53,483 nucleotides of DNA from a bacterium (GTDB taxonomy: Bacteria > Patescibacteriota > Minisyncoccia > UBA6257 > GWB1-50-10): NCBI GenBank assembly GCA_002686365.1, contig NZBZ01000020.1:1-53483 (forward strand). Direction: 5' to 3'. Every line of letters starts with the position of its first letter. Positions within the stretch are counted from its first letter, which is position 1. Below are positions 3,990 to 19,075 of this stretch, piece by piece. The notes under the pieces were generated by a model that was given only the letters and a program-made list of their open reading frames with translations, did not search any database and was not told the origin of the DNA. Made by a program: the position numbers and the translations under genes.

Positions 3990-4027
3990 CCCAATGTATC
4001 AGTGTACTAGTACACTGATACATTGGG
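3990..4027. repeat. 38-bp perfect palindrome CCCAATGTATCAGTGTACTAGTACACTGATACATTGGG
   Basis: The 36-bp core recurs exactly at 18074-18109. Confidence 0.95.
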
Positions 4028-4431
4028 AGTGGTTCGATTCTCGCAGACTGTAGATACACAAAAAGAGCATGCAAGCATACTCCTTTTGTGTTTACACTGA
4101 GCGAGCCTTCGACTTGGCTCAGGCCAAGGCGAAGCGAGTCGAAGTGTGCGGGATACGAGAATCGCCTACAAGTCGCTCGGTCTTCCGACCTCGCGCTCGC
4201 AGGCCGCCTGCCCTGGGCTTCGCTACGCCTTCGGCGTATAGCGTCGCCCGTCTTCACTGCTCGAACACAAGCAGTTGTGTTCTCGCTACGCTCCGACCCC
4301 GCGGTGCTCCTCGCCAATCGCTCGTCGCACATCGCTGCGGTCTTCGATCCCCCACGCACGCAAATTTATTTGCGTGCTCCACCAAAATACATGAAGCTGG
4401 AACTATAAAAGCTCCAGCTTCATGTGTTCAG
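4028..4431 (-). repeat. tRNA-Gly 3'-tail module (hairpins, antisense T-arm copies, degenerate 3'-end duplicate)
   Basis: Hairpin 4389-4424; TTCGATCCCCCACGCACGCA 4343-4362; degenerate 3'-end copy 4146-4164; second antisense copy 4033-4045. Confidence 0.75.
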
Positions 4432-4502
4432 TGCGGGTGGGGGGAATCGAACCCCCGTCTACTCCTTGGAAGAGAGTCATCCTACCACTGAACGACACCC
4501 GC
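4432..4502 (-). tRNA. tRNA-Gly(TCC)
   Basis: Cloverleaf GCGGGTG/CACCCGC, anticodon loop CT-TCC-AA, GGTTCGATT T-loop. Confidence 0.95.
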
Positions 4503-4506
4503 GTTT

Positions 4507-5181
4507 TTAAACATCCGGCAATGCACCTTCAATCCAACCCATGATTTTTCGGTGAAGCCGGACACCAAACTCTGGTTTTCCTTTGCTCACAATTGTAATG
4601 CGAGCAGTCCCATAAGGCAACTTCCGACGCTTTATCCGTAATTTATTCGTCCTAGCATCAATAATAGGATTCTGAAAATTACTTGCAGGCAAGTTTGTAA
4701 CTTTTATCCAGTAACGTATACATTCTTCAGTTTTATTGTCTGGATATAGATACAAAAGCACTTTAATATGAGACAAAGGAACGCCGCAAGCATCTTGAAA
4801 CCATCGAATTGCCAACTTAATGATTCGAGGATCAGAATTTATTACTTGGGCGAATTCATAAGATTTTGACCCTTCACCAATATAAATACCCAACCCCAAC
4901 AGAAATAAGTCCCGCCGAGTAAGATTTCCTACCTCTCTCTTACCTTCTTGTTTTAATTGGCTCGTCTCCTCCATCCTCCGATTATGCCGAACAGCTCCAC
5001 CACGGGCAGGAGCATAACGAATTCTTCCTAAAACCCTTTTATTAGGAGCGAATGGTCGGTCTTTAAACCAGTTACTCAAAGTGCTTTTCGTGATGTCTAA
5101 TTTCTCACTAATCAAGTTGTAGGAATACCCAGCATCACGCATTTTAGTGGCCTTTTCTTTTTGTGGGTTATAACGAGGCAT
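4507..5181 (-). CDS. HTH plus LAGLIDADG-like hypothetical protein (ORF track starts at 5205; ATG 5181 preferred)
   Basis: N-terminal HTH (GYSYNLISEKLDITKSTLSNW); LGLGIYIGEGSK motif followed by INSDP; TG-n-TATAAT 6 nt before ATG 5181. Confidence 0.65.
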   Translation of the reverse strand: MPRYNPQKEKATKMRDAGYSYNLISEKLDITKSTLSNWFKDRPFAPNKRVLGRIRYAPARGGAVRHNRRMEETSQLKQEGKREVGNLTRRDLFLLGLGIYIGEGSKSYEFAQVINSDPRIIKLAIRWFQDACGVPLSHIKVLLYLYPDNKTEECIRYWIKVTNLPASNFQNPIIDARTNKLRIKRRKLPYGTARITIVSKGKPEFGVRLHRKIMGWIEGALPDV

Positions 5182-5250
5182 ATGTTTATTATACCATACA
5201 CCCAAACAACATACCCGGGTTCGGAAAAAGGGAAAAATAAAAAACGGAAA

Positions 5251-5895
5251 CTATCCCTCCGTTTCATTTTGATGTCCATTCTTGAGCCACCATGCGCCAA
5301 GGTAGACCAATGGAGAACTTATTGAACCAAATAAAACCTTAAAGATAAAGTAGGGGATTGCAATTCCCATGACAAATGCAAATGTGAATTTCGGCGTGAG
5401 CTGGTAGAAGGCAATCATCATAAATAGGAAGGTATCGATTGCCTGCGAGAAGACTGTGGATACATTTGTTCGAAGCCACAAAAATCGTCCAGAGGTTTTC
5501 TTTTTCAAAAGCCCAAATGACCACACATCATGAAACTGTGAAATGAGAAAAGCAATAATACTTGCAGTCATAATTCGAAGCGAGCTTTTGAAAACAGTAA
5601 CATAAGCGTCATTCATGGTATACCGCTCATGCGCCGGCAATGAAACAAAGATTGCAACGTAGGCCATAACAATAAGAATCGCAATCATGCCCGCGAGAAT
5701 AAACTGGCGGGCAAGCTTTTTTCCAAATACCTCTTCAACAACATCTGTTGCGAGAAATGCGAGAGGTACCATAAAAATGCCAACTGATGCAGAAAAGGGC
5801 CCAAAAAGAGAAATAATCTTTGAACCAAAAAGATTCATGCCAATAAGAAGGGCGATAAAGATTGCAAAAAGCACTTGAAGTCGAAATGAAAACAT
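5251..5895 (-). CDS. VUT family (YhhQ-like) queuosine precursor transporter
   Basis: Multi-TM; SK..; PLAFLATDVVEEVFG; R..TASIIAFLISQFHD; WLRTNVSTVFSQAIDT. Confidence 0.9.
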   Translation of the reverse strand: MFSFRLQVLFAIFIALLIGMNLFGSKIISLFGPFSASVGIFMVPLAFLATDVVEEVFGKKLARQFILAGMIAILIVMAYVAIFVSLPAHERYTMNDAYVTVFKSSLRIMTASIIAFLISQFHDVWSFGLLKKKTSGRFLWLRTNVSTVFSQAIDTFLFMMIAFYQLTPKFTFAFVMGIAIPYFIFKVLFGSISSPLVYLGAWWLKNGHQNETEG

Positions 5896-5921
5896 GAAGT
5901 CTATACTACCAATCTAAAAGC

Positions 5922-5953
5922 AAAAAAGAAAGGCGATCCGGAAGGGGACCGCC
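5922..5953 (-). terminator. Intrinsic terminator upstream of the VUT gene
   Basis: GGCGGTC/GATCGCC stem followed by TTTCTTTTTT on the minus strand. Confidence 0.7.
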
Positions 5954-6222
5954 AACGATGATGTAAACCAGTTTTGCGACGAGATGTTATAGATGAAGAA
6001 AGAAGGCCAGCTAGACACTTGGGCGAACTAGCCAGCCCAACAGGAATCATCGCGTGTGGTTACATATGTATTAATAACACATCCACAAAAACTAGGCAAG
6101 ATATTTTTCAGAGTTTTATGCGAGATATTGTCAAAAGTAAAATAAAGTTGTATAAAAATAGATAGATGGCACGCTCGACTACAGCAGTAGACACTAGGTC
6201 CTAGCCGTAGAAGGAGAATGTC

Positions 6223-6792
6223 ATGCCAGATGAACAACAGCTGCGCATTGATCTGCCTAAGGGTGTTACTGTATCTACTTCTGCCATCCAAGCTGCCTCG
6301 AGTGTCCCAGACAAAGAGGTGATTCCAAATCCAGAAGGACCGTGGATATTTAGTGGAGGAAGGACCCCGGGAAAATCAGTGGAACAGCTGATGTTCCTGA
6401 AGTACAAAAGGGTTCTGTGGTTTGCTACAAGTAATGAGATGCGGGACGAAAGACTGAAGCAGCATGCTAAGTGGCTGATACAGCAGGGAGAGAATCGAGT
6501 AGTGCGAGAATCCTGCGCCTTCTGCGAAAAGCCCGCCCAGGTCTTTTATGCAGAAGGGGGCAGTTCAGGATATGCGATAGTGCCAAAGCAAGTTGCCTGT
6601 GAGGCCTGTTTGCGGGCAAAACAGTTTTGGGAAGCAGAGTCAGGGGATCTCAAGTTTCCTGTTCTGCTAGATAACCGCTTCAGTAGCGAGGAATGTCGAA
6701 GGGGAATAGTTGAGGTGTTCAAAAGCGTTTTTGAGATACGCGGGAACATCACAATAAAAGCCGCTTTTGACTTCTTCTGTCGCGAAGACTAA
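6223..6792 (+). CDS. Hypothetical protein with CxxC...CxxC putative zinc site
   Basis: 189-aa ORF, AAGGAG SD, CAFC and CEAC motifs, terminator 6793-6827. Confidence 0.7.
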   Translation: MPDEQQLRIDLPKGVTVSTSAIQAASSVPDKEVIPNPEGPWIFSGGRTPGKSVEQLMFLKYKRVLWFATSNEMRDERLKQHAKWLIQQGENRVVRESCAFCEKPAQVFYAEGGSSGYAIVPKQVACEACLRAKQFWEAESGDLKFPVLLDNRFSSEECRRGIVEVFKSVFEIRGNITIKAAFDFFCRED

Positions 6793-6863
6793 CAGGCCGC
6801 CCACACAAAGGACGGCCTGATTTTTTTAATAAGATTATTGCAAATGCGAAAATATAAGGTAGA

Positions 6864-7427
6864 GTGATAATAATGAAAGCAATACGAATCATTGATCCAA
6901 TATACTGGCTTCTCCGCCTGATTCTGCGAAACTTTATAAACGCCGAGTTAACAAAGGTAGAAAAAAGATTTGTACAAAATAATATTGACAAGCATAGAGG
7001 GGTAATATGGGTAAATATTATCGTTAGCGTATTTGTCTTTCTCGGCCTGAGTAATACGCCAGAGGATACTATCAGCCTCGTAATAACTTCACTCATAGCC
7101 CCTGTTATGGTTATGGGCGCAGCATGGTTTGCCATTTCTTTTGGCGGCATTCCACAAAAGCTTATCAATATAGCTATGTCTGTAACGTTCTGGATGTTCA
7201 CCGCTTTCGTTGTATCACTATCAGCAATGTTCATTGCAGTTGGTTTTGTAACAAACCCATACTTATGGCCCGCCCTTATCATAATTTATCTGGGCGCTCT
7301 ATTTAGCTGTATTATGTATGACACATCAGACGGATTAAAGGCAGGACTAGACGAGACTCAGCTCAAGCACTCCCGAGCCGCACTGGCCTACTACGAAAAA
7401 GAAGGAATACGACCTGAAGACGAATAG
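6864..7427 (+). CDS. Hypothetical integral membrane protein (~4 TM); likely ATG at 6873
   Basis: Four hydrophobic segments. Confidence 0.75.
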   Translation: MIIMKAIRIIDPIYWLLRLILRNFINAELTKVEKRFVQNNIDKHRGVIWVNIIVSVFVFLGLSNTPEDTISLVITSLIAPVMVMGAAWFAISFGGIPQKLINIAMSVTFWMFTAFVVSLSAMFIAVGFVTNPYLWPALIIIYLGALFSCIMYDTSDGLKAGLDETQLKHSRAALAYYEKEGIRPEDE

Positions 7428-7443
7428 ACCGCCACTCAACTTC

Positions 7444-7477
7444 AATCAAAAAACCGCACACTCGTGCGATTTTTTAA
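7444..7477. terminator. Bidirectional terminator AAAAAACCGCACACTCGTGCGATTTTTT
   Basis: Near-identical copy at 11788-11820 and half copy at 10918-10932. Confidence 0.8.
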
Positions 7478-7614
7478 TCAACTATCATAAAATGCTTGCC
7501 CCAGAAATTTGTCTGAAAGCAGGTACGCTTCCCGCACTGCTCAAATAAGGGAAGAAAGCTCAACGCGATAAGCACAATAAGAAGAATTAGTAAGAATAGA
7601 AGAATCTTTTTCAT
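7474..7614 (-). CDS. Small (46 aa) membrane-anchored/exported protein not in the ORF track: MKKILLFLLILLIVLIALSFLPLFEQCGKRTCFQTNFWGKHFMIVD
   Basis: Hand-translated; its ATG overlaps the TGA of the upstream GrpB gene (ATGA); classic MKK plus hydrophobic stretch. Confidence 0.65.
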   Translation of the reverse strand: MKKILLFLLILLIVLIALSFLPLFEQCGKRTCFQTNFWGKHFMIVD

Positions 7615-8153
7615 TGACTCCTTTTCCATTCGACAACTTTTTCTCTTAATTCGGTATTAAGATATTTGTCTTTTCCTTTGCGATACGAAATGTAATCATT
7701 GGGGAATTGTTTTATAAGCATAGACTTTATCCGTTCGTACCGCTTTATTTCTTGTGGGTGTGTTTTCAGATAATCCCTTTTATCTATGAATTCATCTATT
7801 TTAGAGTGACCAACAGGAAAAACATGGATATTTTCTAGTCGTTTCCCATTTTTTTCTCTGCAAAAAAACATTGATTCTTCTGCTATATAATTCTCTTTGT
7901 ACGAATATCCTAATTTTTCCATCTCAATACGTTCGTTTTTAATATCGTGCATGTTATGAACAATAACCAAAACGTCAATGATAGGCTTTGCTTTCATTCC
8001 CTTAATAGAAGTGCTCCCAACATGCTGGACTGATAGCAATTTATCGCCAAACACGTTCTGAATTGCCTTCTTAATTTGTAAAAATTTATTATTCCACGAT
8101 GGATTATAATCTTCTAGTTCGTATTCTTTATTTATGGTTCGGTAAGTAGCCAT
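7611..8153 (-). CDS. GrpB/UPF0157 family nucleotidyltransferase-fold protein
   Basis: HVGSTSIKGMKAKPIIDV, NIHVF, RDYLKTHP..Y..K..L..Y..GK. Confidence 0.9.
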   Translation of the reverse strand: MATYRTINKEYELEDYNPSWNNKFLQIKKAIQNVFGDKLLSVQHVGSTSIKGMKAKPIIDVLVIVHNMHDIKNERIEMEKLGYSYKENYIAEESMFFCREKNGKRLENIHVFPVGHSKIDEFIDKRDYLKTHPQEIKRYERIKSMLIKQFPNDYISYRKGKDKYLNTELREKVVEWKRSQ

Positions 8154-8223
8154 ATGTATTGAATTTATTATCCCATAATAACTATAGAAACAAAAAATTT
8201 CTTGTAAAACGAAGCGTGTAATT

Positions 8224-8276
8224 GTGTCAGGAGACTGCCTGTCCGCCTTGGGCGGAGACGCTATTAGAACCTGTTT
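8224..8276 (+). repeat. Array junction motif GTCAGG(A)GACTG-[CCTGTCCGCCTTGGGCGGA]-GACGCTATTAGAACCTGTTT
   Basis: 8257-8276 is identical to 10087-10106 (20 bp); related copy ends at 11242; partial copy near 8800. Confidence 0.8.
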
Positions 8277-8297
8277 GGTGAGTTAAATTTTAATATG

Positions 8298-8792
8298 TTA
8301 TCGGAAGTATTTTTCTAACACTTTAAAATAATCACTCCCATTATCAACTTCCTTGTAATTATTTTTATCTACCCACATGAATTTATCATGCTCATCACTT
8401 AATTTCAGTTCACCTGAAATATACCTACACTTAAATGCTACATAATACACCACCTTTCCATAATTCTCGTTGGTTTTAGGAACTTTGAAAAATTCGTGAT
8501 ACCACGAAGCAAATGGATCGCCAACCTCTATTTCAAGATTCGTCTCCTCCTTAACTTCTCTTTGTAACGAACGGATTAAGCTGGACGCGTCTCCATCTTT
8601 AGCTTCATCTTCCTGAATTTTTCCTCCAGGAAAGTCCAAGCCCTCAAAAGGGTCATTGAGAACCAAAATCTTTCCATCTTTTTCAATAAGAGCTTTTTGC
8701 CCAACACAAAGTAATGCATCATCTTTCATAGAGATAAAAATAACAGACTTTAGTCTGTTTCTCCACTTATAAAAAACCTCAACTCTAATCAC
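8298..8792 (-). CDS. NUDIX hydrolase
   Basis: FPGGKIQEDE(insert)...SLQREVKEETNL Nudix box; LSDEHD..W. Confidence 0.9.
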   Translation of the reverse strand: MIRVEVFYKWRNRLKSVIFISMKDDALLCVGQKALIEKDGKILVLNDPFEGLDFPGGKIQEDEAKDGDASSLIRSLQREVKEETNLEIEVGDPFASWYHEFFKVPKTNENYGKVVYYVAFKCRYISGELKLSDEHDKFMWVDKNNYKEVDNGSDYFKVLEKYFR

Positions 8793-8828
8793 AGATAGGC
8801 CTGTTTGGTGAATGTTTGATAGTGCAAT

Positions 8829-9695
8829 TTAAAGTCTCTGCACCTGCTCGCGTAGATCAAATCTAAGACGACATATGCCTTCTGCAGACGGATATGTTGT
8901 TTCATCAATACGATCACACAATGAAGGGTTGTTTAACTTCCAAGCCATGTCAGCTATGCATAAATCGTGTCGCGCTCCTCGCATTCGTTGACAATATGAT
9001 GCGCCCCCTAGACCTCCTCCAGTTATTTCCTGTGCCACATTCTTTGAAGATTGAGATATGCATTCATCAATCTTTCTCTCGTTTGTTGATAGTCCATCGA
9101 GTTCAAGTCTGCAGATACTAGAATCTTCTGTTATGCTTGCTGCCGCAGAAAGACAGGCAAAACTTAAGCCAGAATAACATTCTGAAAATGGTTCAGACGC
9201 GCAAGCACAAACATCAAGATCCCCTGTTTTTGCGGCCACCATCCCCCTGCACACAAAAGGAGTGATTGCTCCATAATGAGAAGCAACAAGACCAGGAATC
9301 TGGTCACAGGCGCCAACATTATTCTGCGCAAGAGCCTGCTGTACCGTCATTAACATCTCATCAAAAAGCATTATATGCTGTTCATCTGCTTTCTCTGATG
9401 AAGTATCTCTCATAATCCCTGAGGGAACCAAAATGAGAGCAGCTCCTAAAATAAAGGTGAGTGACACGTGAATAACTTTTTTGCTTTGGAAACGCCGCAA
9501 CGCAATAACCCCGACTACAATGAATAATACTATGACAAAAATAGGAAGTATAAAAAAGAAAAGAAGTCTTCCAGAATCTAAGAATCCAATACCACCTAGG
9601 TCACGCGTTGCCCTTTCCAATAAGAAAGAAAAAATAAAGTACGAGACAGAAATAACAACTGCAAACAGGAGAACCTTTTTCCATTCAAAAGACAT
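8829..9695 (-). CDS. Membrane-anchored protein with Cys-rich extracellular repeats (ORF track starts at 9716)
   Basis: 3 TM helices, then repeated C..i....C...A.....lC motifs; TG-c-TACAAT 6 nt before ATG 9695. Confidence 0.75.
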   Translation of the reverse strand: MSFEWKKVLLFAVVISVSYFIFSFLLERATRDLGGIGFLDSGRLLFFFILPIFVIVLFIVVGVIALRRFQSKKVIHVSLTFILGAALILVPSGIMRDTSSEKADEQHIMLFDEMLMTVQQALAQNNVGACDQIPGLVASHYGAITPFVCRGMVAAKTGDLDVCACASEPFSECYSGLSFACLSAAASITEDSSICRLELDGLSTNERKIDECISQSSKNVAQEITGGGLGGASYCQRMRGARHDLCIADMAWKLNNPSLCDRIDETTYPSAEGICRLRFDLREQVQRL

Positions 9696-9731
9696 ATTTC
9701 TATTGTAGCACATCAATTAAAAATCCCTCAA

Positions 9732-10105
9732 TTAATGTAGCCCCTCGTCGCCGCGGCTCCTCGGGATACTCGATTTTGAAACCAAAAACCTGCTCTCAAA
9801 AAAGCAGGTTTATTGGACAAAATCGGTGGGTGCCTGACGGGGATCCTTCTCCCCCGCCCCGATGATAAATGTCGGGGCTCCCCCGAAGCCACGGACTCGC
9901 ACCCCATCAAACAATGTAGCCCCTCGTCGTCCCGCTTTGGCGGGACTCGCTCGGGATACTCTTGTTTCTTACGAAATCAAAGATTTCGAGAAACAAGGTT
10001 CGCCAGAATTCCGTTCGATCCCCATACATCATAAACAAAAATAATCCCACAAATGCGGGACTATTTTTGCTTTGGGTCAGGGACTGGACGCTATTAGAAC
10101 CTGTT
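9732..10105. repeat. Structured spacer unit A of the tRNA-His-anchored array
   Basis: Ordered motifs shared with 10933-11242. Confidence 0.85.
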
Positions 10106-10204
10106 TACTAGCAATATATTGACATAATACAGAATATATGCTTTAATAGAGGAGGTTAGAAAAGGCATCGTACATACCAGTATCCAAGCGAGGAGGGCCA
10201 AAAC

Positions 10205-10858
10205 ATGGCCTCAGTAGACAGAGACGCGCTTCGTTCGTTCCTGCTCGGGAATGATGCTTCAGAAACCCTCGTCGCAGAGGCGATGGAGCATCTTGAGCAC
10301 TTCTTCGTGGCGGCAGAGGATGGAAAGTATCCGCTGAAGCCCGTTGGAGAAATTGATCTCGAGGTAGTGAAAGCTGCTATATCGAGATCGACGGGACAAG
10401 AAGTCGAAAAGGTTGTTCCGATCTCTCAAGCTCAACCGTTCCCCAGGCCGGAATGGATGAGCGAGGGGGTTCATGGCGCTATCCTCGATGATAGACTTGA
10501 AGACAGCCTCGGAGACAGCATCGAAAGAGACAGCCTCGAGGAAGGCTTCGAGAGCAGCTTTGGGGACGGTCTTAGGGACAAACTTGAGAGTGGCCTTAGA
10601 GACAGACTCGGGGACATCATCTGGCCCAGCATCGAGGACGGTGTCAGGGAGAGTCTCAAGAACATTCTCTGGACCGGTCTCGAGGGCCATTTCGGTGGCA
10701 GCTTCTGGGCCAATCTAGTTTATGCTTTAGAACTCGTTCTAGCTGGCGAAGAAGAGCAGGCGCAAACACTCTTCTCCCTCCTCGACGCCTGGGACGGAAT
10801 TCTCATCCTCGGCGAGAAGGAAGACGAATCAGGAGTCTGGATCATCCTCGTCGCCTGA
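10205..10858 (+). CDS. Hypothetical acidic protein with tetrapeptide-periodic repeat, GC-rich
   Basis: LEDS-LGDS..FESS-FGDG-LRDK-LESG-LRDR-LGDI periodicity; own TTGACA-17-TTTAAT promoter, GAGGAGG SD and terminator 10890-10916. Confidence 0.75.
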   Translation: MASVDRDALRSFLLGNDASETLVAEAMEHLEHFFVAAEDGKYPLKPVGEIDLEVVKAAISRSTGQEVEKVVPISQAQPFPRPEWMSEGVHGAILDDRLEDSLGDSIERDSLEEGFESSFGDGLRDKLESGLRDRLGDIIWPSIEDGVRESLKNILWTGLEGHFGGSFWANLVYALELVLAGEEEQAQTLFSLLDAWDGILILGEKEDESGVWIILVA

Positions 10859-10932
10859 CACAACGTCACAACATACGTCACGCATCACAGGCTCACCTCG
10901 GGTGGGCCGTTTTATTTCAAAAAATCGCACAC

Positions 10933-11242
10933 TTAATGTAGCCCCTCGTCGCCCCGCCTTGGCGGGGCTCGCTCGGGACACTCAACTTTGTAACCAAAAA
11001 ACAGCTAATCCACGTTAGCTGTTTTTTGGACAAAGTTGGTGGGTGCCTGACGGGGATCCTTCTCCTCCAAAATTTCAAGGGACTGAAATTTCTCCTCCGA
11101 AGCCACTGACTCGCGCTTTCTCCCCGCTAAGCGGGGCGCGCGAGTTCAGTTCGATCCCCATACATCTTAAACAAAAACAGCAGGACACAAGGCCCAGCTG
11201 TTTTTGCTTTGGGTCAGGGACTGGACGACGTTAGAACCTGTT
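10933..11242. repeat. Structured spacer unit B of the tRNA-His-anchored array
   Basis: Same motif order as unit A with sequence-variable hairpins. Confidence 0.85.
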
Positions 11243-11259
11243 GTGTATAATGAATTCAT

Positions 11260-11766
11260 ATGAAAAATCAAAAAGGTTCAGTGGGGATAGTCGTTTTAAT
11301 CGTAATCGCAGTAGTTGTTGTGTCTGGCGGGTATATGCTGTACCAGAGGAATGGGGACGATACTGGCACGAAAGAGGAAAGCACATCTGTAGAAGGAGTA
11401 GGGGGAACCGAATCTTCAAGTATCTCTAGATTAGATTCTCTAGCGGGGGTGCCGTTCGAAGAAGCTTTGCAAAAAGCAAAGGAGATTTCTTTGCTTATTG
11501 TGAAAGAAGAATCGCTTGGTCAAGTTGACTGCCCAGAGGTGTCGACTGATATCTTTACGTCTCAAAATGATGGTGCAAATAAAGCATGGGCTGTATATGT
11601 TATTTCTGAAAATTGTAGGGATGATTCCATTGGAGCAATTCGGGAAGAACGACTTATGATGTTTGATGAAGAATCAGGATGGGCATTACGTGATGCACAC
11701 GCAAGCAAGCAGAGATGTCATGTGGGAAGAGGGCACCAAGACTTTTCCAACGAACTATGTAACTAG
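11260..11766 (+). CDS. Exported protein with prepilin-like N-terminus (QKG/S + hydrophobic helix) and C-terminal C..GRGHQDFS.E.C motif
   Basis: Sequence motifs; lacks the canonical E+5 of type IV pilins. Confidence 0.7.
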   Translation: MKNQKGSVGIVVLIVIAVVVVSGGYMLYQRNGDDTGTKEESTSVEGVGGTESSSISRLDSLAGVPFEEALQKAKEISLLIVKEESLGQVDCPEVSTDIFTSQNDGANKAWAVYVISENCRDDSIGAIREERLMMFDEESGWALRDAHASKQRCHVGRGHQDFSNELCN

Positions 11767-11787
11767 ACGAAAAAAAGAAAAAGACTC

Positions 11788-12021
11788 AATCAAAAAATCG
11801 CACACCTGTGCGATTTTTTAGCCAGGGTGCCTGACGGGAATCTCACGTCATCCCTCACAAAGTTCGGGACTCCCTAAAACCCCTCGGTTTTAGTCCGCTC
11901 GCCTTCGGCGAGCTTTTCCGCCACGGGGAAACCCAGGTTTCCCCGACCCCTTTCCCGTTCGAGCCCCGTCACAGTAGCATAAATGAAAAATGCCAGCACA
12001 TAAGTGCTGACAATTTTCATT
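11788..12021 (-). repeat. tRNA-His 3'-tail module plus terminator
   Basis: Hairpin, antisense T-arm 11957-11970, core 11870-11913 shared with the Arg module, His-type 3'-end copy at ~11824-11842. Confidence 0.8.
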
Positions 12022-12023
12022 TG

Positions 12024-12096
12024 GGCGATCGACGGGACTCGAACCCGCAACACCGAGCACCACAAGCTCGTGCTCTACCATTGAGCTACGACCGCC
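12024..12096 (-). tRNA. tRNA-His(GTG) with encoded G-1
   Basis: Acceptor GCGGTCG/CGATCGC, G-1:C73, anticodon loop TT-GTG-GT. Confidence 0.95.
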
Positions 12097-12161
12097 ATAC
12101 ATTGTCCTCAGACAAACTCACAATACGCAATTAAAGCGTTTAGGTCAATTAGGAGCCCTTA

Positions 12162-12584
12162 CTACGCATTTCCCTGCGGGATATGTCCCTCCCGCCTTTG
12201 CTTCTTTTTATCTCCAATAATCTTCTTTTCTCGTATCCTGTCATCTTCAGCGCTCAAAGGCGGCTCATTTGGAATTCGCACAGGAGGTTCTTTAATTGCC
12301 TCATTTATCATAGATGCGAGACGCTCCAAGGCCTTCTCTCTGTTCTCCTCCTGGTACCGTGTCTCCTGATCCTCCACCCAGAGCTCATCTTCCTTATTTA
12401 CATGATGAGCAAGTTTCTCCCGAAGCCGCCGTTTCTCTAGAGGCTCCAAAGGCAGATCATCAACGCTCACCCACATATGCACCTTTGTGGAACGATGATC
12501 CTTGTTCTGACCCCCAGGCCCATGCGAACGAGAAGCCTTAAACTCAACCTTCTCTCCTAGTGTGTGTATATCTATATGAGTCAT
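12162..12584 (-). CDS. arfB: Alternative ribosome-rescue peptidyl-tRNA hydrolase ArfB (YaeJ)
   Basis: SRSHGPGGQN (GGQ) motif, QETRYQEEN, basic C-terminal tail. Confidence 0.9.
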   Translation of the reverse strand: MTHIDIHTLGEKVEFKASRSHGPGGQNKDHRSTKVHMWVSVDDLPLEPLEKRRLREKLAHHVNKEDELWVEDQETRYQEENREKALERLASMINEAIKEPPVRIPNEPPLSAEDDRIREKKIIGDKKKQRREGHIPQGNA

Positions 12585-12611
12585 GCAAATATTCTAAGGT
12601 ATAATGTTTGA

Positions 12612-13220
12612 ATGGGCAATCTGGTAGCCATGATAACCGGATGGATGACAGCTTATCCGGCTTTCAAGATCGGCATGGTTGGCATTCTCACCGTCATACA
12701 GGGAGAAAGCGGTGTTATCTTAGGAACCCTTCTCATTCGCTCGGAAAAATTGGGATGGGGAACATTCTTCCTCGTTACAGGAGTCGCACTCCTTCTCTAT
12801 GAATCGAGCGTATATGGCCTAGGGCGACTCCTACGAAACATACCCCTTGGGCAAAAAATTGAAAAGAGAATTAAGCGCCACAAAAAAATTGAAAAAGCCC
12901 TCCATGAAAACTCGGGGAGGCTGCTCATAGTATCACGATTCATTATATACTTCGGTCTTGCGGTCGTATTTTTGAGTGGATGGACCAGAATGCCCTACAA
13001 GCAGTTTATTAAGATGCGCGCCATAGGGGTGGCGCTCTGGCTTATCATATGGACATTCGTCTTCCATTCACTCGCCGTAGCCCTTGGAATGGATGAAAAG
13101 GTACTAGCAGAAGATATCGTCATCGGAATAGTTATAATCATCATCATGATGGTCGGAATGCGAAAAGTAGTTGGTAAGGCGGTTGTGAAGCTGCTCTTCG
13201 GCAACGGCAATGGGAAGTAA
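12612..13220 (+). CDS. DedA/VTT family membrane protein
   Basis: YGLGR..; LLIVSRFIIYFG; SGWTRMPYKQF..IGVALW. Confidence 0.75.
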   Translation: MGNLVAMITGWMTAYPAFKIGMVGILTVIQGESGVILGTLLIRSEKLGWGTFFLVTGVALLLYESSVYGLGRLLRNIPLGQKIEKRIKRHKKIEKALHENSGRLLIVSRFIIYFGLAVVFLSGWTRMPYKQFIKMRAIGVALWLIIWTFVFHSLAVALGMDEKVLAEDIVIGIVIIIIMMVGMRKVVGKAVVKLLFGNGNGK

Positions 13221-13224
13221 TCTC

Positions 13225-14046
13225 TTATTCTAATTTTAAAAGGAGTCCTCGTTTCTTCGCGCGGGAGAACATCATGTAGAAGAACCAAAGCGCAAACACA
13301 AGATAAATTGCGTTAGTTAAAAACGCATACCCTAAAGTTGTAAAAGGAAAATCTCCCTGAAGTACAGCGCGCATACCCTCAAAAACATGGGCCGAAGGGA
13401 GTGCTAAGGCGATAGATTGAAGAAAAGAGGGAAGAGCGGAAACTGGATAGAAAACAGCAGAGAGAGGCTGAAACAGCACAATAAGCCCAAAGGCAAGAAT
13501 CTGCGCTTGCGTTCCATACCGCAAGAGAATTCCAATAATAAGGACTCCAATAGTCCAGCCAAAAATAAGGAGATTAATAACAAAAGGAATAATCAGGATG
13601 CCAAATTGAAACACATCAAAGCTATAAAGAAGCGCGGCAAGAGCTCCCATTACAATTGCAACAAGCAGGATTCGCACAGCTCCCAAAATCGCAGTGGATG
13701 TTAAAAACTCGCTAGGTTTCAGTGGTGTAACAAACACATTCAAAAGATTTCGTTCCCATACGTCTTCCAGAAAAGCAACTGATACTGACTTCTGCGACTG
13801 AGTAAGGAAGTTCCAAAAGATTAGAGCGCCTAAAAGGACGCTTACCATATTAAACTCTCCAACAAAATCCGTATTCTGAAGCCACACAGAGAGAAATCCC
13901 CAAACCAAAAGCTCCATCACAGGCCAGTAAAAGATATCCATGACGCGCGGCAAACTACGCCTGTAAAGATACAGATGCCGGATAAGTAACGCGTTTATTC
14001 TATGAAACTTCATATTATGAGCGGGCAATATGGAGGAATACCTCAT
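13225..14046 (-). CDS. ABC-2 type transporter permease
   Basis: 6-TM pattern, PLSAVFYPVSALP; coupled to the ATPase gene. Confidence 0.9.
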   Translation of the reverse strand: MRYSSILPAHNMKFHRINALLIRHLYLYRRSLPRVMDIFYWPVMELLVWGFLSVWLQNTDFVGEFNMVSVLLGALIFWNFLTQSQKSVSVAFLEDVWERNLLNVFVTPLKPSEFLTSTAILGAVRILLVAIVMGALAALLYSFDVFQFGILIIPFVINLLIFGWTIGVLIIGILLRYGTQAQILAFGLIVLFQPLSAVFYPVSALPSFLQSIALALPSAHVFEGMRAVLQGDFPFTTLGYAFLTNAIYLVFALWFFYMMFSRAKKRGLLLKLE

Positions 14047-14749
14047 TCAAATCTTTTCGACCATATTTTTCTATAATCTGCTTTGGCGTTCCATCATCAA
14101 CAATCCTGCCTTTTTGCAAAAAGATAATCCTGTCACAAAGCTCCTCAATCTCTGCCATGTTGTGTGAGGTATAAAGAATAGTAATACCGCGCTCCTTCTG
14201 AATCTTTTTCAAAAGCTTACGTGTTTTATCAGCAATATCAGGATCAAGCGAGGAGGTCGGCTCATCTAAAAGGAGAAGCTTAGGGTCATTCAAAAGAGAC
14301 TTTACCATACTAAGCCGTGTCATCTGCCCAGTAGAAAGCGCTGATGTCTTCTTAGGCAAAAGGTCTTCTATTTCAAACTGACGGGCAAGCCCGGAAATCT
14401 TGCCGCGAAGATCAGAAACTCCATAGAGTCGCGCAAACGTGGCCAAGTTCTCCCAGACTGTAAGGTTATATGGCATAGACACGTATGGAGAAGAGAAGTT
14501 TACCTTACCAAGAATCTCCTCACGATTCTTGCGCATATTCTTCCCAAATATCCGAATCTCCCCGCTTGTGGGGGTAATAATATCAAGCATCATCTGAATC
14601 GTAGTTGTCTTCCCAGCTCCATTTGGTCCGAGCAGACCTGTAATACTTCCCCTTTCAATTCCAAAAGAAATTCCATCTACTGCTATGGCATCTTTGCCTT
14701 TGGCAGGAAACTCCTTTCGCAAATTTTTAACTTCAATAATCTGGCGCAT
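14015..14749 (-). CDS. ABC transporter ATP-binding protein (ORF track starts at 14773)
   Basis: Walker A GPNGAGKTT, signature LSTGQ, Walker B LLLLDEP, H-loop TSH. Confidence 0.95.
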   Translation of the reverse strand: MRQIIEVKNLRKEFPAKGKDAIAVDGISFGIERGSITGLLGPNGAGKTTTIQMMLDIITPTSGEIRIFGKNMRKNREEILGKVNFSSPYVSMPYNLTVWENLATFARLYGVSDLRGKISGLARQFEIEDLLPKKTSALSTGQMTRLSMVKSLLNDPKLLLLDEPTSSLDPDIADKTRKLLKKIQKERGITILYTSHNMAEIEELCDRIIFLQKGRIVDDGTPKQIIEKYGRKDLNEVFLHIARS

Positions 14750-14764
14750 TTCTTGAGTGTACTT

Positions 14765-14804
14765 AAAGAACAAGGTTTATGCAAAAAGAACAAGGTTTAT
14801 GCAA
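14765..14804. repeat. 20-bp perfect tandem duplication AAAGAACAAGGTTTATGCAA x2
   Basis: Read directly; lies in the ABC operon promoter region. Confidence 0.9.
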
Positions 14805-15027
14805 AGCAAAAACAAGTTACTTAGTTTACATAACGGCCGTCTAATAAACTAAGTAAACGAAACTAACGAAACTGAAATTAATATCCGGCCGGATATTAAC
14901 TTGAGGTTGAAGAAGTAGTAAGCTTAAAAAACAAAAAAGAGCCCGTGTATGGGCTCAAGAATGAAAAGAGGCGGGCCGCATGGGTCCGCCTCGAAAGTTG
15001 AATCGATATGCCTCAGGAACCGTCGGT

Positions 15028-15843
15028 CTAGGCCCCGAGATACTTCTCCTTTGTTGACTCGAATGGCTCGGGAGCAAGCTCACTGGCCTCGCGAGCGTAG
15101 AGGTAGAGTACGACAGCAGTGTACTGGCGTCCATCGGGAGCAACGATGGAAATAGGACCCAGTATCTTCATCTCCTTGACTTCTCCCGGGGGGCGAAGGT
15201 TGATGAAGGTATTTTGGGTGTTAACTCTGACGTTTTGGAATGCTTCGGACTGCGCCTCTTTGTCGTGCCCCAGAGCGAAACCAACACCCATAACGAGTGG
15301 CTGGGCAAAGATGCCCAAATCCTCAATCTCGGGACACGCCAAGAGGCGCGACGCTTCCTCCATCGAGGACCCCACCACCTCGAATGAAAGATGGGGGAAC
15401 CTGCCGAAGGCACGCATCGCAGTCCAGAGATGGCTCGATGAGATGGGGTGATCTCCACGAAGTCGTGCGATAAGCCCCGCAATTTTTACTCGGGGCTGCG
15501 ACGCTCTAAAGAGATCAAACACGCTGGAGGACGAAAGCCCGATCTCGATAGGGTCAATGCCAGTGAGGAGAGCGTCCTCAACTAGGTTAAGGGAGAAACC
15601 GTAGATGTAGGTCATGGATTCACCGAGGCCCGCCGGCTCCTTGCCGCAGAGAACGGCATTGCGAATGAGTCGCAAGTCATCTACCGCCTGAGAAGCATTT
15701 AGGCAGAGGAACTCGCGCGCCTCCTCAGCGTTCGCAGGGTTGGAGTGGAGAAATCGAGGGGTGTACTCGGCGTTCGCACCGGCGGCGACTGTTGCAAAGA
15801 AGAGAGTGATCAGAGTCGCAACAATACCATGTTTACACATCAT
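15028..15843 (-). CDS. Hypothetical secreted protein, GC-rich
   Basis: Signal peptide (AGANA/E), TAGGAG SD, TTGACT promoter, double hairpin 14934-14994 downstream. Confidence 0.75.
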   Translation of the reverse strand: MMCKHGIVATLITLFFATVAAGANAEYTPRFLHSNPANAEEAREFLCLNASQAVDDLRLIRNAVLCGKEPAGLGESMTYIYGFSLNLVEDALLTGIDPIEIGLSSSSVFDLFRASQPRVKIAGLIARLRGDHPISSSHLWTAMRAFGRFPHLSFEVVGSSMEEASRLLACPEIEDLGIFAQPLVMGVGFALGHDKEAQSEAFQNVRVNTQNTFINLRPPGEVKEMKILGPISIVAPDGRQYTAVVLYLYAREASELAPEPFESTKEKYLGA

Positions 15844-16126
15844 TGGACGCTCCTATGCCCTAGTTTACGCAACGACAGCACTAGGTAGTTTCTTTACTGA
15901 CTAGAATACTGTCGTTTTCTGTGCATATTTATATAATAAAAACAAGAAAAAGTCAACGTAAGAGCGCCAAAAAATAGGAAAGAACTTTAACATATTAACC
16001 TAAGTAAGGGAGGACAAAAAAGAGCCCATGTATGGGCTCAAAAAAGAAATGAGGCGAGATACTCTTGGATGAGTCTCGCCTCGTACGTTCGAACGTTCTG
16101 ATTGCGAAAGCGCTTAGGGTGGCGCC

Positions 16127-17056
16127 TTATTCGGCCGGGAGTTGGACTTCCTCCGCGCAGTCCCTCAACCCTCTCTCGTGGTCGTCGCAGGGGTATGCGT
16201 CGATATCGTCCGCTCCGAAGTGCTGATCCGCCTCGACGATCTTGCGCGATGTCCTCGCCAGGACGAAGACGGTTATTTCATCTCCGACCAGATCGAAGAA
16301 TCGGTCAGCCTCGTATGCCGGAGGCTCAACGTCCATTGCGAAGTACTCGCACAACTGTATCATGGCCCGCACCCAGGACAGGTGCGCAACCTTGTTGTAC
16401 TCGGTTACAGGTCCTGATGCAGAGCAGATGGCATATACCTCACCGTCGATCTCCTCAACCGTGATGCCACGCTCGAGCATAGAGTTGACGACTTCGGCGT
16501 TCTCAGCCGAAGGCCTAGTCTTCATCTCGATCATCATATCGACGTCTCCGAAGGTCGCGTCGGCACTCTCCTCACCGCGGTACGAATAGGCGATGAAGGA
16601 GACGCCGAATCTGACGTCGTGCGGGACGAAGAGGCCCTGAACCATGCTTACGAAGGCCGTATCCTTGTCCGCTTCAGGAGTAGACACGGCGATGAGTACC
16701 ATGCGGGCAGCCGTACCACTGTGAATCAGCGGCACCGGCCACGAGTTCGGGAGAGCGTATCCCTCTGACACCGAGATGACGTCGCCGTATCCAACTTCGA
16801 ACACGGTCACGGCGAAGTCGGCTGGAAGACGTTCGTCGTGGATGTCGACCCTCCTGCTCCCGTCCTCGGTCCGCTTGAGAACGAGATCCACCTCGAGCGC
16901 CGGATCCCCGTACTCGTTCTGTGTGAGAGCGATCTGGCGGATGAGGTCCTGGTACTCCATATGGCGGAGTCCCAGATCGACCTCCGACGCGCTCGCGACG
17001 GTCGCTACTGCGACGGAGAGACAAGCGACCAGGGCCAAAACATTATTTGTCCTCAT
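16127..17056 (-). CDS. Hypothetical secreted protein, GC-rich (ORF track starts at 17092; ATG 17056 has a GGAGG SD)
   Basis: Signal peptide (VASA/SE); TTGACT-17-TATAAT promoter at 17195-17223; double hairpin 16016-16083. Confidence 0.75.
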   Translation of the reverse strand: MRTNNVLALVACLSVAVATVASASEVDLGLRHMEYQDLIRQIALTQNEYGDPALEVDLVLKRTEDGSRRVDIHDERLPADFAVTVFEVGYGDVISVSEGYALPNSWPVPLIHSGTAARMVLIAVSTPEADKDTAFVSMVQGLFVPHDVRFGVSFIAYSYRGEESADATFGDVDMMIEMKTRPSAENAEVVNSMLERGITVEEIDGEVYAICSASGPVTEYNKVAHLSWVRAMIQLCEYFAMDVEPPAYEADRFFDLVGDEITVFVLARTSRKIVEADQHFGADDIDAYPCDDHERGLRDCAEEVQLPAE

Positions 17057-17448
17057 TGCACAATCCTCCAACCAACAGACCCCTGCTGGCACGGCCTCCC
17101 ATGTTTAAGTTGTAGGAAGGAATCTACCCTTCGACAAGCTCAGGGCAAATTCCTTCCCACAACAGTTTTCAAAGACCTATCAGCCTATCTATTAATTATA
17201 GCATAAAAACATGGAAAAGTCAATCCCACACATAGCATAGCTATATATGAAGGACAAGTTATAAAAACCCAATAAATAAGGCGTTTTACCACGACAACAC
17301 CATAATCGTGGGAGTAAAAAAGACGAGCCGCATGGACTCGTCTGTGATTTCCTAATGTTCTGTTGACTGTTCTAGTCAGGGCTGTGCCGGTGTATCCAGC
17401 TAAACTGTTCGGGCCGAGCTTTGTTGGGGATCGCCCGTTCCTCGTCCT

Positions 17449-17697
17449 CTACCTCCTCTTCATCCACTTCGATCTCTTGAGCGCCATCGATTTCCGTCGC
17501 GTCTTTCTCTTCGGCCGCAGCAGCCGCGGCTGCCTCCCTTTCTGCCGGTGTTTCGGAGTACTCGTATAGGGCATTTCGAAGGTCATCGATAGAAGGAGCA
17601 GAAACAGTAGCGCAGCACATCCTATTGAGGAAAGCGCCACGATGATGATGGTGATAAGGATGCCCAAACGCAACATAGCTTGTTGCCAAGTAATCAC
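17449..17697 (-). CDS. Small membrane protein with basic tail (alternative overlapping frame 17372-17704)
   Basis: Long hydrophobic helix plus K/R-rich tail; SD-like AGGTGG upstream. Confidence 0.45.
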   Translation of the reverse strand: MITWQQAMLRLGILITIIIVALSSIGCAALLFLLLLSMTFEMPYTSTPKHRQKGRQPRLLRPKRKTRRKSMALKRSKWMKRR

Positions 17698-17821
17698 GGA
17701 CCACCTACTTCAGTCCGACGACCTAGTTGAGAATGCCCCCGTACCTATACTATTTATACCTCAAAATCCCATATACGGGCAAACGTTGCATAAATAGAAA
17801 ATTGTATTAAAGTATGTATAC

Positions 17822-17896
17822 GCCGCGGTAGCTCAGTGGTAGAGCAGTAGCTTGAAGAGCTTCGTGTCGGGGGTTCGATTCCCTCCCGCGGCACCA
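17822..17896 (+). tRNA. tRNA-Phe(GAA), CCA encoded
   Basis: GCCGCGG/CCGCGGC acceptor, loop TT-GAA-GA, one mismatch in the anticodon stem. Confidence 0.92.
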
Positions 17897-18125
17897 TTAG
17901 TACACAAAGGAGGCGTAATGCGCCTCCTTTGTGTATATATTATGAGAGGGAATCGAAGGGAACCCCGCCGCTCGCATTGCGAGGAGGAGGCGGGGTCCCA
18001 GGCCGCGGAGGAAAGATTTGCTTTAGCAAATCTTGTGGGAGCGGGATTCCCTCCCGCGGCACAAATAAAATTTCCAATGTATCAGTGTACTAGTACACTG
18101 ATACATTGGGATGAGGGGAGGGAGT
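17897..18125 (+). repeat. tRNA-Phe 3'-tail module
   Basis: 15-bp hairpin 17901-17935; antisense T-arm 17944-17957; exact 18-bp 3'-end duplicate 18045-18062; palindrome 18074-18109; second antisense 18116-18125. Confidence 0.85.
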
Positions 18126-18164
18126 AAAAAAATAGAGCGTCCTTTGGGAGGGAACGCTCTTTCG

Positions 18165-18512
18165 AAATGGGTGTGCGATGAGGAGGAGTAGCACCTCCCC
18201 GCAAACCGCCTAGGATGATTTACGTACCCTATTGGTAGATGTCTGGTTAACAGCCAGCTCTGCCAAAAGGATATCCTCAACGCACAAGCTTATGTCAGCG
18301 AACCATGCCAGAGGCGTTCCAGTAACAAGCGCGTGGGGATGCTCTTGTCGGGGAAGCATAAGGTTGGAATTCGCTGACACAAGTAAGATAGGCGAGAAAA
18401 AATCTGCATAGGCGTGCGCTTTTTTTGGTACGGTCTCATCCTGCGCTTATCAATGCCCATATCCGCAGGGTCGAACCCTAACGGAAACACAGACAATTCT
18501 CGCCACAAGCTA
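18165..18512 (-). ncRNA. Candidate ~340-nt structured non-coding RNA, unclassified
   Basis: Lies between the tRNA-Thr 3' end and a minus-strand terminator (18123-18161); several long-range helices; no convincing ORF. Confidence 0.4.
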
Positions 18513-18516
18513 GGAG

Positions 18517-18588
18517 TGCGCCCTACCGGGATTGAACCGGTGACCCACCGATTACGAGTCAGTTGCTCTACCTCTGAGCTAAGGACGC
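18517..18588 (-). tRNA. tRNA-Thr(CGT)
   Basis: GCGTCCT/AGGGCGC acceptor, loop CT-CGT-AA. Confidence 0.93.
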
Positions 18589-18597
18589 AAAAAAATA

Positions 18598-18674
18598 TGG
18601 AGGAGGGGGAGGGCCTCGAACCCCCGACCTCAGGACTGTCAGTCCCGCGCTCTATCCAACTGAGCTACCCCACC
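18598..18674 (-). tRNA. tRNA with GAC anticodon (nominally Val), atypical identity elements
   Basis: Full cloverleaf, loop CT-GAC-AG, CCA encoded; U3:U70 mismatch, U73, A20. Confidence 0.8.
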
Positions 18675-18743
18675 ATCATTTGTCGACGAACGAAACGTAA
18701 TAGTACCAAGCTGATTATATATGTCAAGAAAAGAAAAAAAATA

Positions 18744-18937
18744 GCATCCCCGGCAGGAATCAAACGTCGCTCATATTCATTCGCTCCCTCAAAACCCTCG
18801 GTTTTGAGTCCGCTCGCTTCGCTCGCTCATTCCAACACGGAGGGGGCCCGGCAGCTCCCCCTCCGACCCACCCCCTCGTTCGAGTCCTGGCGGGAAAAAC
18901 AATACAGCCAAGATAAAACTCGGCTGTATTGTTTCAG
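18744..18937 (-). repeat. tRNA-Arg 3'-tail module
   Basis: Hairpin 18895-18936; antisense T-arm 18878-18894; core 18784-18826 shared with the His module; 15-bp exact 3'-end duplicate 18744-18758. Confidence 0.85.
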
Positions 18938-19011
18938 CATCCCCGGCAGGACTCGAACCTGCAACCTACTCCTTAGAAGGGAGTCGCTCTATCCAGTTGA
19001 GCTACGGGGAC
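18938..19011 (-). tRNA. tRNA-Arg(TCT)
   Basis: GTCCCCG/CGGGGAT acceptor, A20, loop CT-TCT-AA. Confidence 0.95.
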
Positions 19012-19075
19012 TTAACTTTAACGTACCAATTTTATAGGAGACTTACAATAAACCTTCTAGCTTATACCTAATAGC

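Follow-up and report, generated by a model that had tools for sequence, protein, structure and literature searches.

Why do four different tRNA genes in one stretch of bacterial DNA carry the same series of parts behind their 3' ends, including a piece antisense to each gene's own end? The stretch (hereafter the window) is the whole 53,483-nucleotide sequence analysed here, and it belongs to a genome (G000) of 888 kb, 21 contigs and 41 tRNAs that is 91.5% complete. ARAGORN called six tRNA genes in the window, four of which (Gly, His, Phe and Arg) are followed by a hairpin with a T-run, a piece antisense to the T-loop and T-stem, a GC-rich folded stretch and a direct copy of the tRNA 3' end that runs from the T-loop to the discriminator, without CCA. 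We refer to the functional gene end as X_new, to the terminator-type hairpin as H, to the antisense piece as X', to the folded stretch as the core (S) and to the displaced duplicate as X_old. We tentatively read the four tails as copies of small, gene-less mobile "gene-end cassettes" of the Paceibacterota/Parcubacteria (Candidate Phyla Radiation, CPR) that are copied via folded single-stranded DNA (ssDNA). Their identity as mobile cassettes is well supported; the mechanism is one that we infer.

The tail of tRNA-Arg(tct) holds all the parts. Behind the intact target (18937-19011, minus strand; called by ARAGORN, and 68.7 bits with the Rfam tRNA model), whose positions 54-73 form X_new, the terminator-type hairpin and T-run follow immediately at 18895-18934, and then X' (CCCGCCAGGACTCGAAC, 18878-18894), the reverse complement of tRNA positions ~52-70. 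The class-A core at 18765-18877 scores 117 bits with our covariance model R1 and is supported by covariation; it consists of a P1 hairpin (GGGTCGG..CCGTG), a GCGAAGC mini-hairpin, a P3 hairpin (CTCAAAACC-GAG-GGTTTTGAG) and the 3' end GAGCGACG. X_old (TTTGATTCCTGCCGGGGATGC, no CCA) occupies 18744-18764. Behind tRNA-His(gtg) (12023-12095, minus strand; ARAGORN and Rfam) the same order is found, with a terminator hairpin at 11981-12022, X' (GTGACGGGGCTCGAACGG) at 11955-11972, a class-A core at 11845-11954 (68.4 bits with model R1; alignments A1/A2) and a decayed X_old at 11825-11843, beyond which stands an older terminator (11792-11819). On the plus strand, tRNA-Phe(gaa) (17822-17896; ARAGORN and Rfam) is followed by a terminator-type hairpin (17901-17935), X' (GAGAGGGAATCGAAG, 17944-17958), a class-C core (17959-18044) made up of a GGAACCCCG..CGGGGT hairpin, a second hairpin and a GGGAGCGG end, and X_old (GATTCCCTCCCGCGGCAC, no CCA) at 18045-18062.

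The tail of tRNA-Gly(tcc) (4431-4502, minus strand; ARAGORN and Rfam) is composite. Its terminator hairpin (4389-4425) is followed at 4342-4378 by a leading hairpin of class B (4356-4378) and X' (4342-4355, GTGGGGGATCGAAG), then by a class-B core recognised by sequence comparison (4167-4341) and by a degenerate duplicate, X_old1 (GGCGATTCTCGTATCCCGCAC, 4146-4166). Further out, at 4031-4091 on the same strand, lies the remnant of an older stacked unit that has lost its core, with a terminator (4056-4091) and a second antisense piece, X'2 (4031-4046, CTGCGAGAATCGAACC), that matches X_old1. The initial annotation of this DNA had described the four tails and had noticed that the degenerate second Gly copy has an antisense partner of its own; its coordinates for all four tails are confirmed, and so is this second pair. 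As DNA, the four tails fold far better than shuffled sequences (z -4.2 to -8.9), and in the predicted folds X' pairs with the distal X_old and closes the multi-hairpin core.

We then looked at the whole genome for the module. An ungapped antisense score of at least 10 was reached downstream of 8 of the 41 tRNAs, in seven of these at +42 to +61, compared with 1 of 41 upstream flanks. Reading the tails genome-wide gave about 12 of 41 tRNAs with the module, which also stands behind Ala(tgc), Cys, Met, Arg(tcg), Ser(gga) and Pro and, in partial form, behind Leu(tag) and Leu(gag). Cognate matching was measured on tRNA positions 52-73 (a first version on positions 60-73 alone was too insensitive) in 60 tRNA-linked copies from many genomes. 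The score of X' was 12.4 with the cognate tRNA and 8.0 with the rest, a difference that none of 10,000 permutations reached, with the limit that the match is largely generic T-loop and the tRNA-specific share only about 4-5 nt on average. This share comes mostly from the 5-nt T-stem and sometimes extends into the acceptor stem. The direct copy scored best for its own tRNA in 48 of the 60 copies. The earlier claim that the antisense piece is matched to its cognate tRNA is therefore borne out, albeit mostly through the generic T-loop. Such matches exceed chance, and the architecture recurs at other tRNAs and in relatives, contrary to the refuting condition that the initial annotation had set.

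The cores form at least three sequence classes of folded, G-rich stretches of roughly 90-175 nt. In this genome class A is found behind Arg(tct), His, Met and Ala, class B behind Gly and Arg(tcg), and class C behind Phe and Pro; the folded stretches behind the Ser and Cys tRNAs are of further types. The class-A core is a G-rich stretch of ~100 nt with two covarying hairpins. A 13-copy alignment has the invariant blocks GGGTCGG, CCGTG, GGA and AAACCGAGGG, and both hairpins show compensatory changes; the class-A helices are 98.3% paired with 106 double-change cells (39 distinct sequences), values unmatched by any shuffle. Searches with the covariance model, a check suggested by the initial annotation, placed this core in 67 of 96 genomes from the family of the window's genome, spread over 29 of 43 genera; the core is conserved across genera. 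Copy number ranges from 0 to 20 per genome (1-20 in carriers) and varies widely inside genera. A further 16 of 300 genomes sampled phylum-wide also carry the core. An exact-pattern scan of public genomes returned more than 119 class-A stretches, all from metagenome-assembled genomes (MAGs) of uncultured bacteria except for one Singulisphaera genome; the MAG labels are mostly Paceibacterota, Parcubacteria, Nealson-, Wolfe-, Yanofsky-, Staskawicz-, Jorgensen- and Liptonbacteria, Minisyncoccia and the like. The class-B core of the Gly tail is 92% identical over 65 nt to the tail of tRNA-Arg(tcg) on contig C4; class B occurs in 16 of the 96 family genomes, and at 8 of 9 relatives' loci examined a tRNA immediately precedes it. 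The start of the class-C core behind Phe is common to the tRNA-Pro tail, also on contig C4. A search of Rfam over window positions 3500-19500 gave no match for the cores, only tRNAs being reported at E<=1.

Where do the copies sit? Sixty-six of 102 class-A copies lie at most 120 nt downstream of a same-strand tRNA, and these tRNAs cover 16 amino-acid types. In 64 tRNA-linked copies X_old starts at tRNA position 54 (range 52-59), and in 57 of the 64 it ends at the discriminator (position 73), while X' is the reverse complement from tRNA position 52 to 61-73 and stops 2-3 nt short of the core. The commonest junction is G|TT in the T-loop, the junction position varying from 49 to 59 between lineages. 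The layout is constant: an intact gene end, a terminator or loop, an inverted target copy, the core and a displaced, decaying duplicate. We found the same core and layout at the 3' ends of rplK (L11), rpmG (L33) and rpsI (S9). The same holds, in opposite orientation, for the 5' end of a gene for a translational GTPase, close to its P-loop; the core there points away from the gene. At each protein-gene target the working end adjoins the gene body, and in many cases recoding sets it apart from the displaced copy, which is what an origin in another lineage would lead one to expect. Because the gene is never broken by the insertion, the cost to the host should be small. In the window's genome the rplK, rpmG, rpsI and GTPase genes are unoccupied and no inverted copy follows them, which indicates that X' comes in with the element; pre-existing palindromes as the target are rejected on the same ground. 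One class-A core (L022; G021:C1, core 1501-1609) lies between tRNA-Thr(tgt) and tRNA-Thr(ggt), without antisense piece, duplicate or terminator, and must therefore be transcribed. The same two tRNA-Thr genes are only 3 nt apart in the window's genome.

These targets bear on two ideas in the initial annotation. One was an RNA device acting on tRNA processing, and the occurrence of the same core at the ends of rpsI, rplK, rpmG and the GTPase gene argues against any device dedicated to that task. The other was a tRNA-adapted, non-autonomous element; a target-adapted, non-autonomous element is what we see, with no integrase, no gene of its own and a recurring core, but its restriction to tRNAs did not hold. 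Where X_new and X_old differ, X' sides with X_new at 42 sites and with X_old at 4; X' and X_old are thus independently decaying copies, and the closing stem is not under selection. No compensatory co-evolution was seen between X' and the distal copy in the X':X_old stem. We therefore rejected both a selected X':X_old stem and a quasi-palindrome "correction" that would copy X_old into X'.

Evidence for movement comes from near-identical cores behind different tRNAs inside single genomes (G014, G066 and G023). The block of identity consists of the T-loop complement GGAATCGAAC, the core and the T-loop GTTCGATTCC, and the flanks outside it are tRNA-specific; so bounded, the core has terminal inverted repeats of ~10 nt that equal the target. 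Young copies have perfect duplications of 40-60 nt or form tandem arrays. At the tRNA-His gene of G064, a perfect 58-nt direct repeat of gene end and terminator flanks X' and core, and at rpsI and rplK the entire unit of end, hairpin and X' is duplicated on either side of the core. G014 has a stack of two cores that differ from each other, with an identical unit of end, loop and X' in front of both. A genome of another family (G314) has a single core that has spread to His, Arg(cct), Glu and Arg(tct), in perfect tandem arrays whose repeat unit is the gene end, 8-60 nt of native trailer and the core; these arrays are without hairpin and without any X' beyond a constant GAACCCCACAGA. Behind tRNA-Arg(cct) and tRNA-Glu (L145, G314:C2:25300-27200, and L146) they comprise 2.5 repeats of a 163-nt unit. 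The one behind Arg breaks off 7 nt into a core, at GGGGGTC|, within the invariant GGGTCGG motif, and this end is a possible nick or switch site. In some copies the new terminator repeats the old one in inverted orientation. Decay is visible as well, in a copy truncated after its first hairpin and in the older Gly unit of the window, which is without its core.

We next searched for an enzyme or partner gene. The 91.5%-complete genome of the window gave no match to a tyrosine recombinase (PF00589), not even Xer, and this may be either an assembly gap or a real loss. An Xer-like tyrosine recombinase of ~300 aa, usually single, is present in 92 of the 96 family genomes searched (a set that includes the window's genome), with or without cores, and it does not lie beside them. 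No tyrosine integrase was found in or next to the insert (serine recombinases were not searched). Clustering of open reading frames (ORFs) at 38 and then 80 loci returned housekeeping neighbours and spurious frames only, with no gene inside or beside the module, and no parent insertion sequence (IS) with the same ends and a transposase was found next to ~180 loci. Reverse transcriptase (PF00078) occurs in 45 of 96 genomes and is missing from those with the highest copy number; TnpB (PF07282) occurs in 5 of 96, no separate search for IscB having been made, and the IS110 DEDD recombinase (PF01548) in 1 of 96. The Y1 HUH family (PF01797) is found in 46 of 96 genomes and is absent from G066, G065, G021, G114 and G000, which carry 4-19 cores. 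Reverse transcriptase, TnpB, Y1 HUH and the IS110 recombinase were rejected as movers, since none tracks the cores. The same applies to a tyrosine integrase, with none in the window's genome and the Xer-like gene of relatives independent of the cores. The proposed search for a co-occurring integrase or HUH gene thus named no partner, and the tyrosine-integrase crossover invoked earlier is not needed to explain the duplication. Many family genomes also encode proteins of ~230-260 aa with a partial Y1 HUH (PF01797) match at ~37-120 (for example G014:C3:28794-29051 and G018:C3:12877-13119), which may be RAYT-like (RAYT, REP-associated tyrosine transposase; REP, repetitive extragenic palindrome).

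Does the core act as DNA or as RNA? G-U pairs fill only 4 of 576 class-A helix cells, and the class-A loops are mostly C-G-closed triloops (C-GAG-G, C-GTG-G and C-GAA-G), GNRA loops being rare. The heptamer GCGAAGC, which forms a DNA mini-hairpin of exceptional stability, was counted 17 times on the sense strand of the 102 cores (in the window at 18811-18817, minus strand) and not once on the antisense strand. At tRNA-linked targets the sense strand of the core is the strand of the gene; it is asymmetric in composition (G 38% versus C 20%) and folds better than its complement, by 4.3 kcal/mol, in 43 of 45 copies. Most copies are preceded by a strong terminator, a hairpin with a T-run. The scarcity of G-U pairs, the triloops, the GCGAAGC heptamer, the strand asymmetry and the terminators in front are suggestive of DNA rather than RNA.

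We therefore propose a non-autonomous element that would act as folded ssDNA of the gene-sense strand and be copied by template switching or strand invasion. The landing site would be a conserved gene segment (tRNA position 53/54, or the ends of rpsI, rplK, rpmG and the GTPase gene), and the element would be copied into new sites rather than cut. In a first step, a nascent strand that has passed the gene end and its terminator would turn back at the terminator palindrome and copy the end backwards, giving X'. On reaching the T-loop complement it would switch to the identical left repeat of a donor core and copy the core. At the donor's right repeat it would switch back to the recipient T-loop, and gene end, terminator and downstream DNA would be copied again. 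In this scheme X' would be a by-product of insertion, neither a guide nor a selected pairing partner. Transfer of the whole cassette between genomes would rely on recombination within the conserved gene, X_old providing a short stretch of homology on the right-hand side; this fits the diverged replacement ends at protein genes. The copying path would explain why the parts come in this order, why X' and X_old are specific to the recipient, why young copies duplicate end and terminator perfectly, why identity blocks stop inside the T-loop, why X' is lacking in the absence of a hairpin, why left junctions vary, why units stack beside the gene and why there is no enzyme. Long perfect palindromes are unstable, and this would explain the early internal deletions in X'.

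Several points weigh against this proposal. The copy-choice route is a reconstruction from end products, and identity blocks that end at the T-loop could equally reflect gene conversion between existing copies. Passive switching would leave unexplained the compensatory conservation of the core hairpins across phylum classes; the core fold must either promote switching or the core must serve some function, be it its own or the host's. Simple fold-back fits the GTPase target poorly, the inverted piece there being remote from its complement, and X' is missing altogether in one lineage (G314). Fold-back at the terminator as the sole step fails in both these cases, and we rejected it as insufficient. 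The G-U scarcity and triloop bias are suggestive of DNA and are not proof, and the copy between two tRNA genes without a terminator must be transcribed. Finally, an unrecognised enzyme is possible, as six protein families were tested and the genome is 91.5% complete.

A stronger claim, that the cores are a new enzyme-free class of mobile DNA in which folded ssDNA retargets itself by copying landing-site sequence into its own flanks, is in our judgement possible but doubtful. The driver would then be either template switching provoked by the fold or, with a target-mimicking hairpin as substrate, one of the housekeeping enzymes (the lone Xer, a primase or a resolvase). Were this so, CPR bacteria would possess an insertion system that is simple, sequence-programmable and "self-healing" and that is aimed at gene ends conserved universally.

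The strongest rival to the cassette reading is a folded ssDNA hairpin attachment site of the integron attC or CTX-phage attP type, used by the lone host Xer-type recombinase; the initial annotation had already raised an ssDNA-hairpin att site, and we think this reading unlikely. The excised cassette (gene end, terminator, X' and core) would fold so that X' pairs with the gene end and mimics a double-stranded target, Xer would exchange one strand at G53|T54, and replication would resolve the junction. The layout maps one-to-one onto attI/attC cassette geometry, and several observations fall into place: G|TT is the commonest junction, units stack with the newest always beside the gene, X' agrees with the proximal gene end, the one that the cassette carries, terminator loops are flipped in some cases, the core resembles a strand-specific ssDNA fold with imperfect stems, and 92 of 96 relatives have a single ~300-aa tyrosine recombinase. 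However, this recombinase is equally present with and without cores and was not found in the window's genome. The shift of the junction between positions 49 and 59, the lack of any core sequence common to the non-tRNA targets, the variable left junctions and the array that ends inside the core all speak against such a site. A move to a different tRNA would give a chimeric tRNA, leaving retargeting unexplained, and no circle of ~170-250 nt, as the route would need, is known.

Like attC sites, the cassettes have imperfect inverted repeats around a variable folded centre (X' with X_old; DNA folds with z of -4 to -9), a strand-specific ssDNA fold, G|TT as the commonest junction and new units that are added beside a fixed site and stack into arrays. 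Unlike integron cassettes, they are without IntI, attI, Pc and ORFs and carry as cargo only the end of the target gene and a terminator, and their inverted repeats copy the target instead of following a fixed R''/R' consensus, with a junction position and a target that vary. The attC core sites RYYYAAC / GTTRRRY are not matched, tRNA junctions reading GTTCRA and non-tRNA junctions being unrelated. The folded ssDNA attP of CTX phage and other integrative mobile elements exploiting Xer (IMEX), which enters dif via the host XerCD, shares the hairpin that mimics a double-stranded target, the use of a host enzyme instead of an element-encoded one and the inverted-then-direct target copies at one end. 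The target here is not dif, though, and ~100-250 nt with no genome behind them serve many targets, each with its own mimic.

An RNA device, which we regard as improbable, would place the function in the transcript. A long tRNA or mRNA trailer would fold so that X' and X_old, mimicking an acceptor/T-stem, close the core, and RNase P and RNase Z would excise a small RNA; its role might be in tRNA processing, 3'-end stabilising or a selfish RNA, and the DNA duplications would merely reflect arrival. The sense strand that folds better is always the gene strand, predicted folds do have the core closed by X' and X_old, 57 of 64 copies have an X_old that stops precisely at the discriminator, the copy between the two tRNA-Thr genes has neither terminator nor duplication, and class B has a hairpin where a D-arm would sit. 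Set against this, the terminators in front of most copies, the core that points away from the GTPase gene, the near absence of G-U pairs and rarity of GNRA loops, an X':X_old stem without compensatory change, a lineage entirely without X' and the lack of an Rfam family match are all hard to reconcile with an RNA.

Guided homing has less to recommend it still, and we consider it very improbable. Here X' would be the guide of an RNA- or DNA-guided system (such as the IscB/TnpB omega-RNA, the IS110 bridge RNA or an intron guide) that directs a nuclease or recombinase to empty targets. A guide-plus-scaffold arrangement is recognisable, X' is complementary to the sequence across the insertion point at tRNA and non-tRNA targets alike, and the targets are highly conserved sites, as with homing elements. 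But the candidate enzymes are rare or misplaced (TnpB in 5 and IS110 in 1 of 96 genomes, reverse transcriptase missing from the highest-copy genomes), X' has indels and mismatches and is mostly generic T-loop, one active-looking lineage has no X', and the occupied allele retains an intact target and so would be cut too.

Integration into tRNA genes classically leaves the tRNA 3' end duplicated as a direct repeat. Ordinary att scars of tyrosine-integrase islands or phages, with an antisense piece due to chance or T-arm symmetry, would give the direct repeat that flanks the insert, and they are refuted to the point of a negligible probability (the initial annotation had remarked that they leave the antisense copy unexplained) by gene-less inserts of 100-250 nt, a conserved covarying core that recurs in hundreds of copies, cognate-specific antisense (0 of 10,000 permutations), a genome without an integrase and the same module at protein-gene ends.

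We also compared the gene-end cassettes with other small or gene-end elements. MITEs (miniature inverted-repeat transposable elements), REP and REPIN (REP doublets forming hairpins), Correia and ERIC (enterobacterial repetitive intergenic consensus) elements are likewise small, multi-copy, non-autonomous, hairpin-forming and found just after genes, and the short terminal inverted repeats GGAATCGAAC ... GTTCGATTCC on a small non-coding element recall MITEs in particular. In contrast to the fixed target-site duplication of 2-10 bp in MITEs, the duplications here are variable and measure 20 to more than 60 nt; in addition, the inverted repeats equal the T-loop target and extend into target-specific sequence, and no parent IS or RAYT tracks the cores. 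Islands and phages at gene 3' ends carry a replacement end, as at tRNA attB sites and with phage 21 and e14 in icd. The cassettes resemble them in supplying the functional end proximally, in displacing the original distally, where it decays, and in a replacement that is diverged at protein-gene targets. They differ by having no integrase, no cargo and an extra inverted target copy, and by young copies that duplicate the recipient's own sequence perfectly.

In fungal mitochondria, mobile GC-rich hairpins or endonuclease ORFs bring replacement gene termini (yeast GC clusters, Allomyces double-hairpin elements). These too are structured, GC-rich inserts of tiny size that enter conserved gene ends of an AT-richer genome and duplicate or replace the terminus; they belong to another domain of life, have no sequence relation to the cassettes and are equally unsettled in mechanism. 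Fold-back and template-switch events (quasipalindrome correction, microhomology-mediated break-induced replication and fork stalling and template switching, MMBIR/FoSTeS) give similar inverted and direct duplications at microhomologies or palindromes with no dedicated enzyme, but those are sporadic mutations, whereas the cassettes are a conserved, recurrent, phylum-wide family.

Together, the element mixes features of MITEs, attC sites and gene-end-replacing integrative elements and fails a defining test of each. Full-text literature searches found no description of it, and the family is apparently undescribed so far. We regard it as a novel form of non-autonomous mobile DNA whose mechanism may well be new in kind. 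The very small genomes of CPR/Patescibacteria are believed to contain few mobile elements. Here, most members of a family have gene-less copies, up to 20 per ~0.7-Mb genome, at the ends of tRNA and ribosomal-protein genes. If the cassettes do spread without an enzyme of their own, they offer a concrete system for how small non-coding elements move and choose targets. The cassettes would then also bear on the possible origin of attC-like hairpin sites, an open question for integrons. In practical terms, the cores are a sensitive marker of recent DNA exchange among CPR lineages, and displaced tRNA 3' ends with long structured trailers will confuse the annotation of tRNAs, terminators and genomic islands.

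Some minor observations concern the surroundings of the cassettes. The genome has two tRNA-Arg(tct) genes (C13:5393-5469, and on C20 the one at window 18937-19011), and only the one in the window has a cassette. At tRNA-Leu(tag) (C2:3146-3330) a 27-nt perfect direct copy of the gene's own 3' end lies at +65, behind a short palindrome and with no recognisable core; this may represent another kind of element or a cassette deprived of its core. A perfect 36-bp palindrome, CCAATGTATCAGTGTACTAGTACACTGATACATTGG, stands just outside the Gly and Phe cassettes (3991-4026 and 18074-18109). It has about nine copies in the genome, several of them ~50-110 nt upstream of tRNA genes, and is a separate repeat family that may be an operator or other hairpin element. 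Directly after the displaced Arg 3' end lies a near-consensus extended -10 promoter (TTGACA-16-TG-TACTAT; 18700-18727, minus strand), placed to drive the tRNA-Val/tRNA-Thr pair at 18516-18674.

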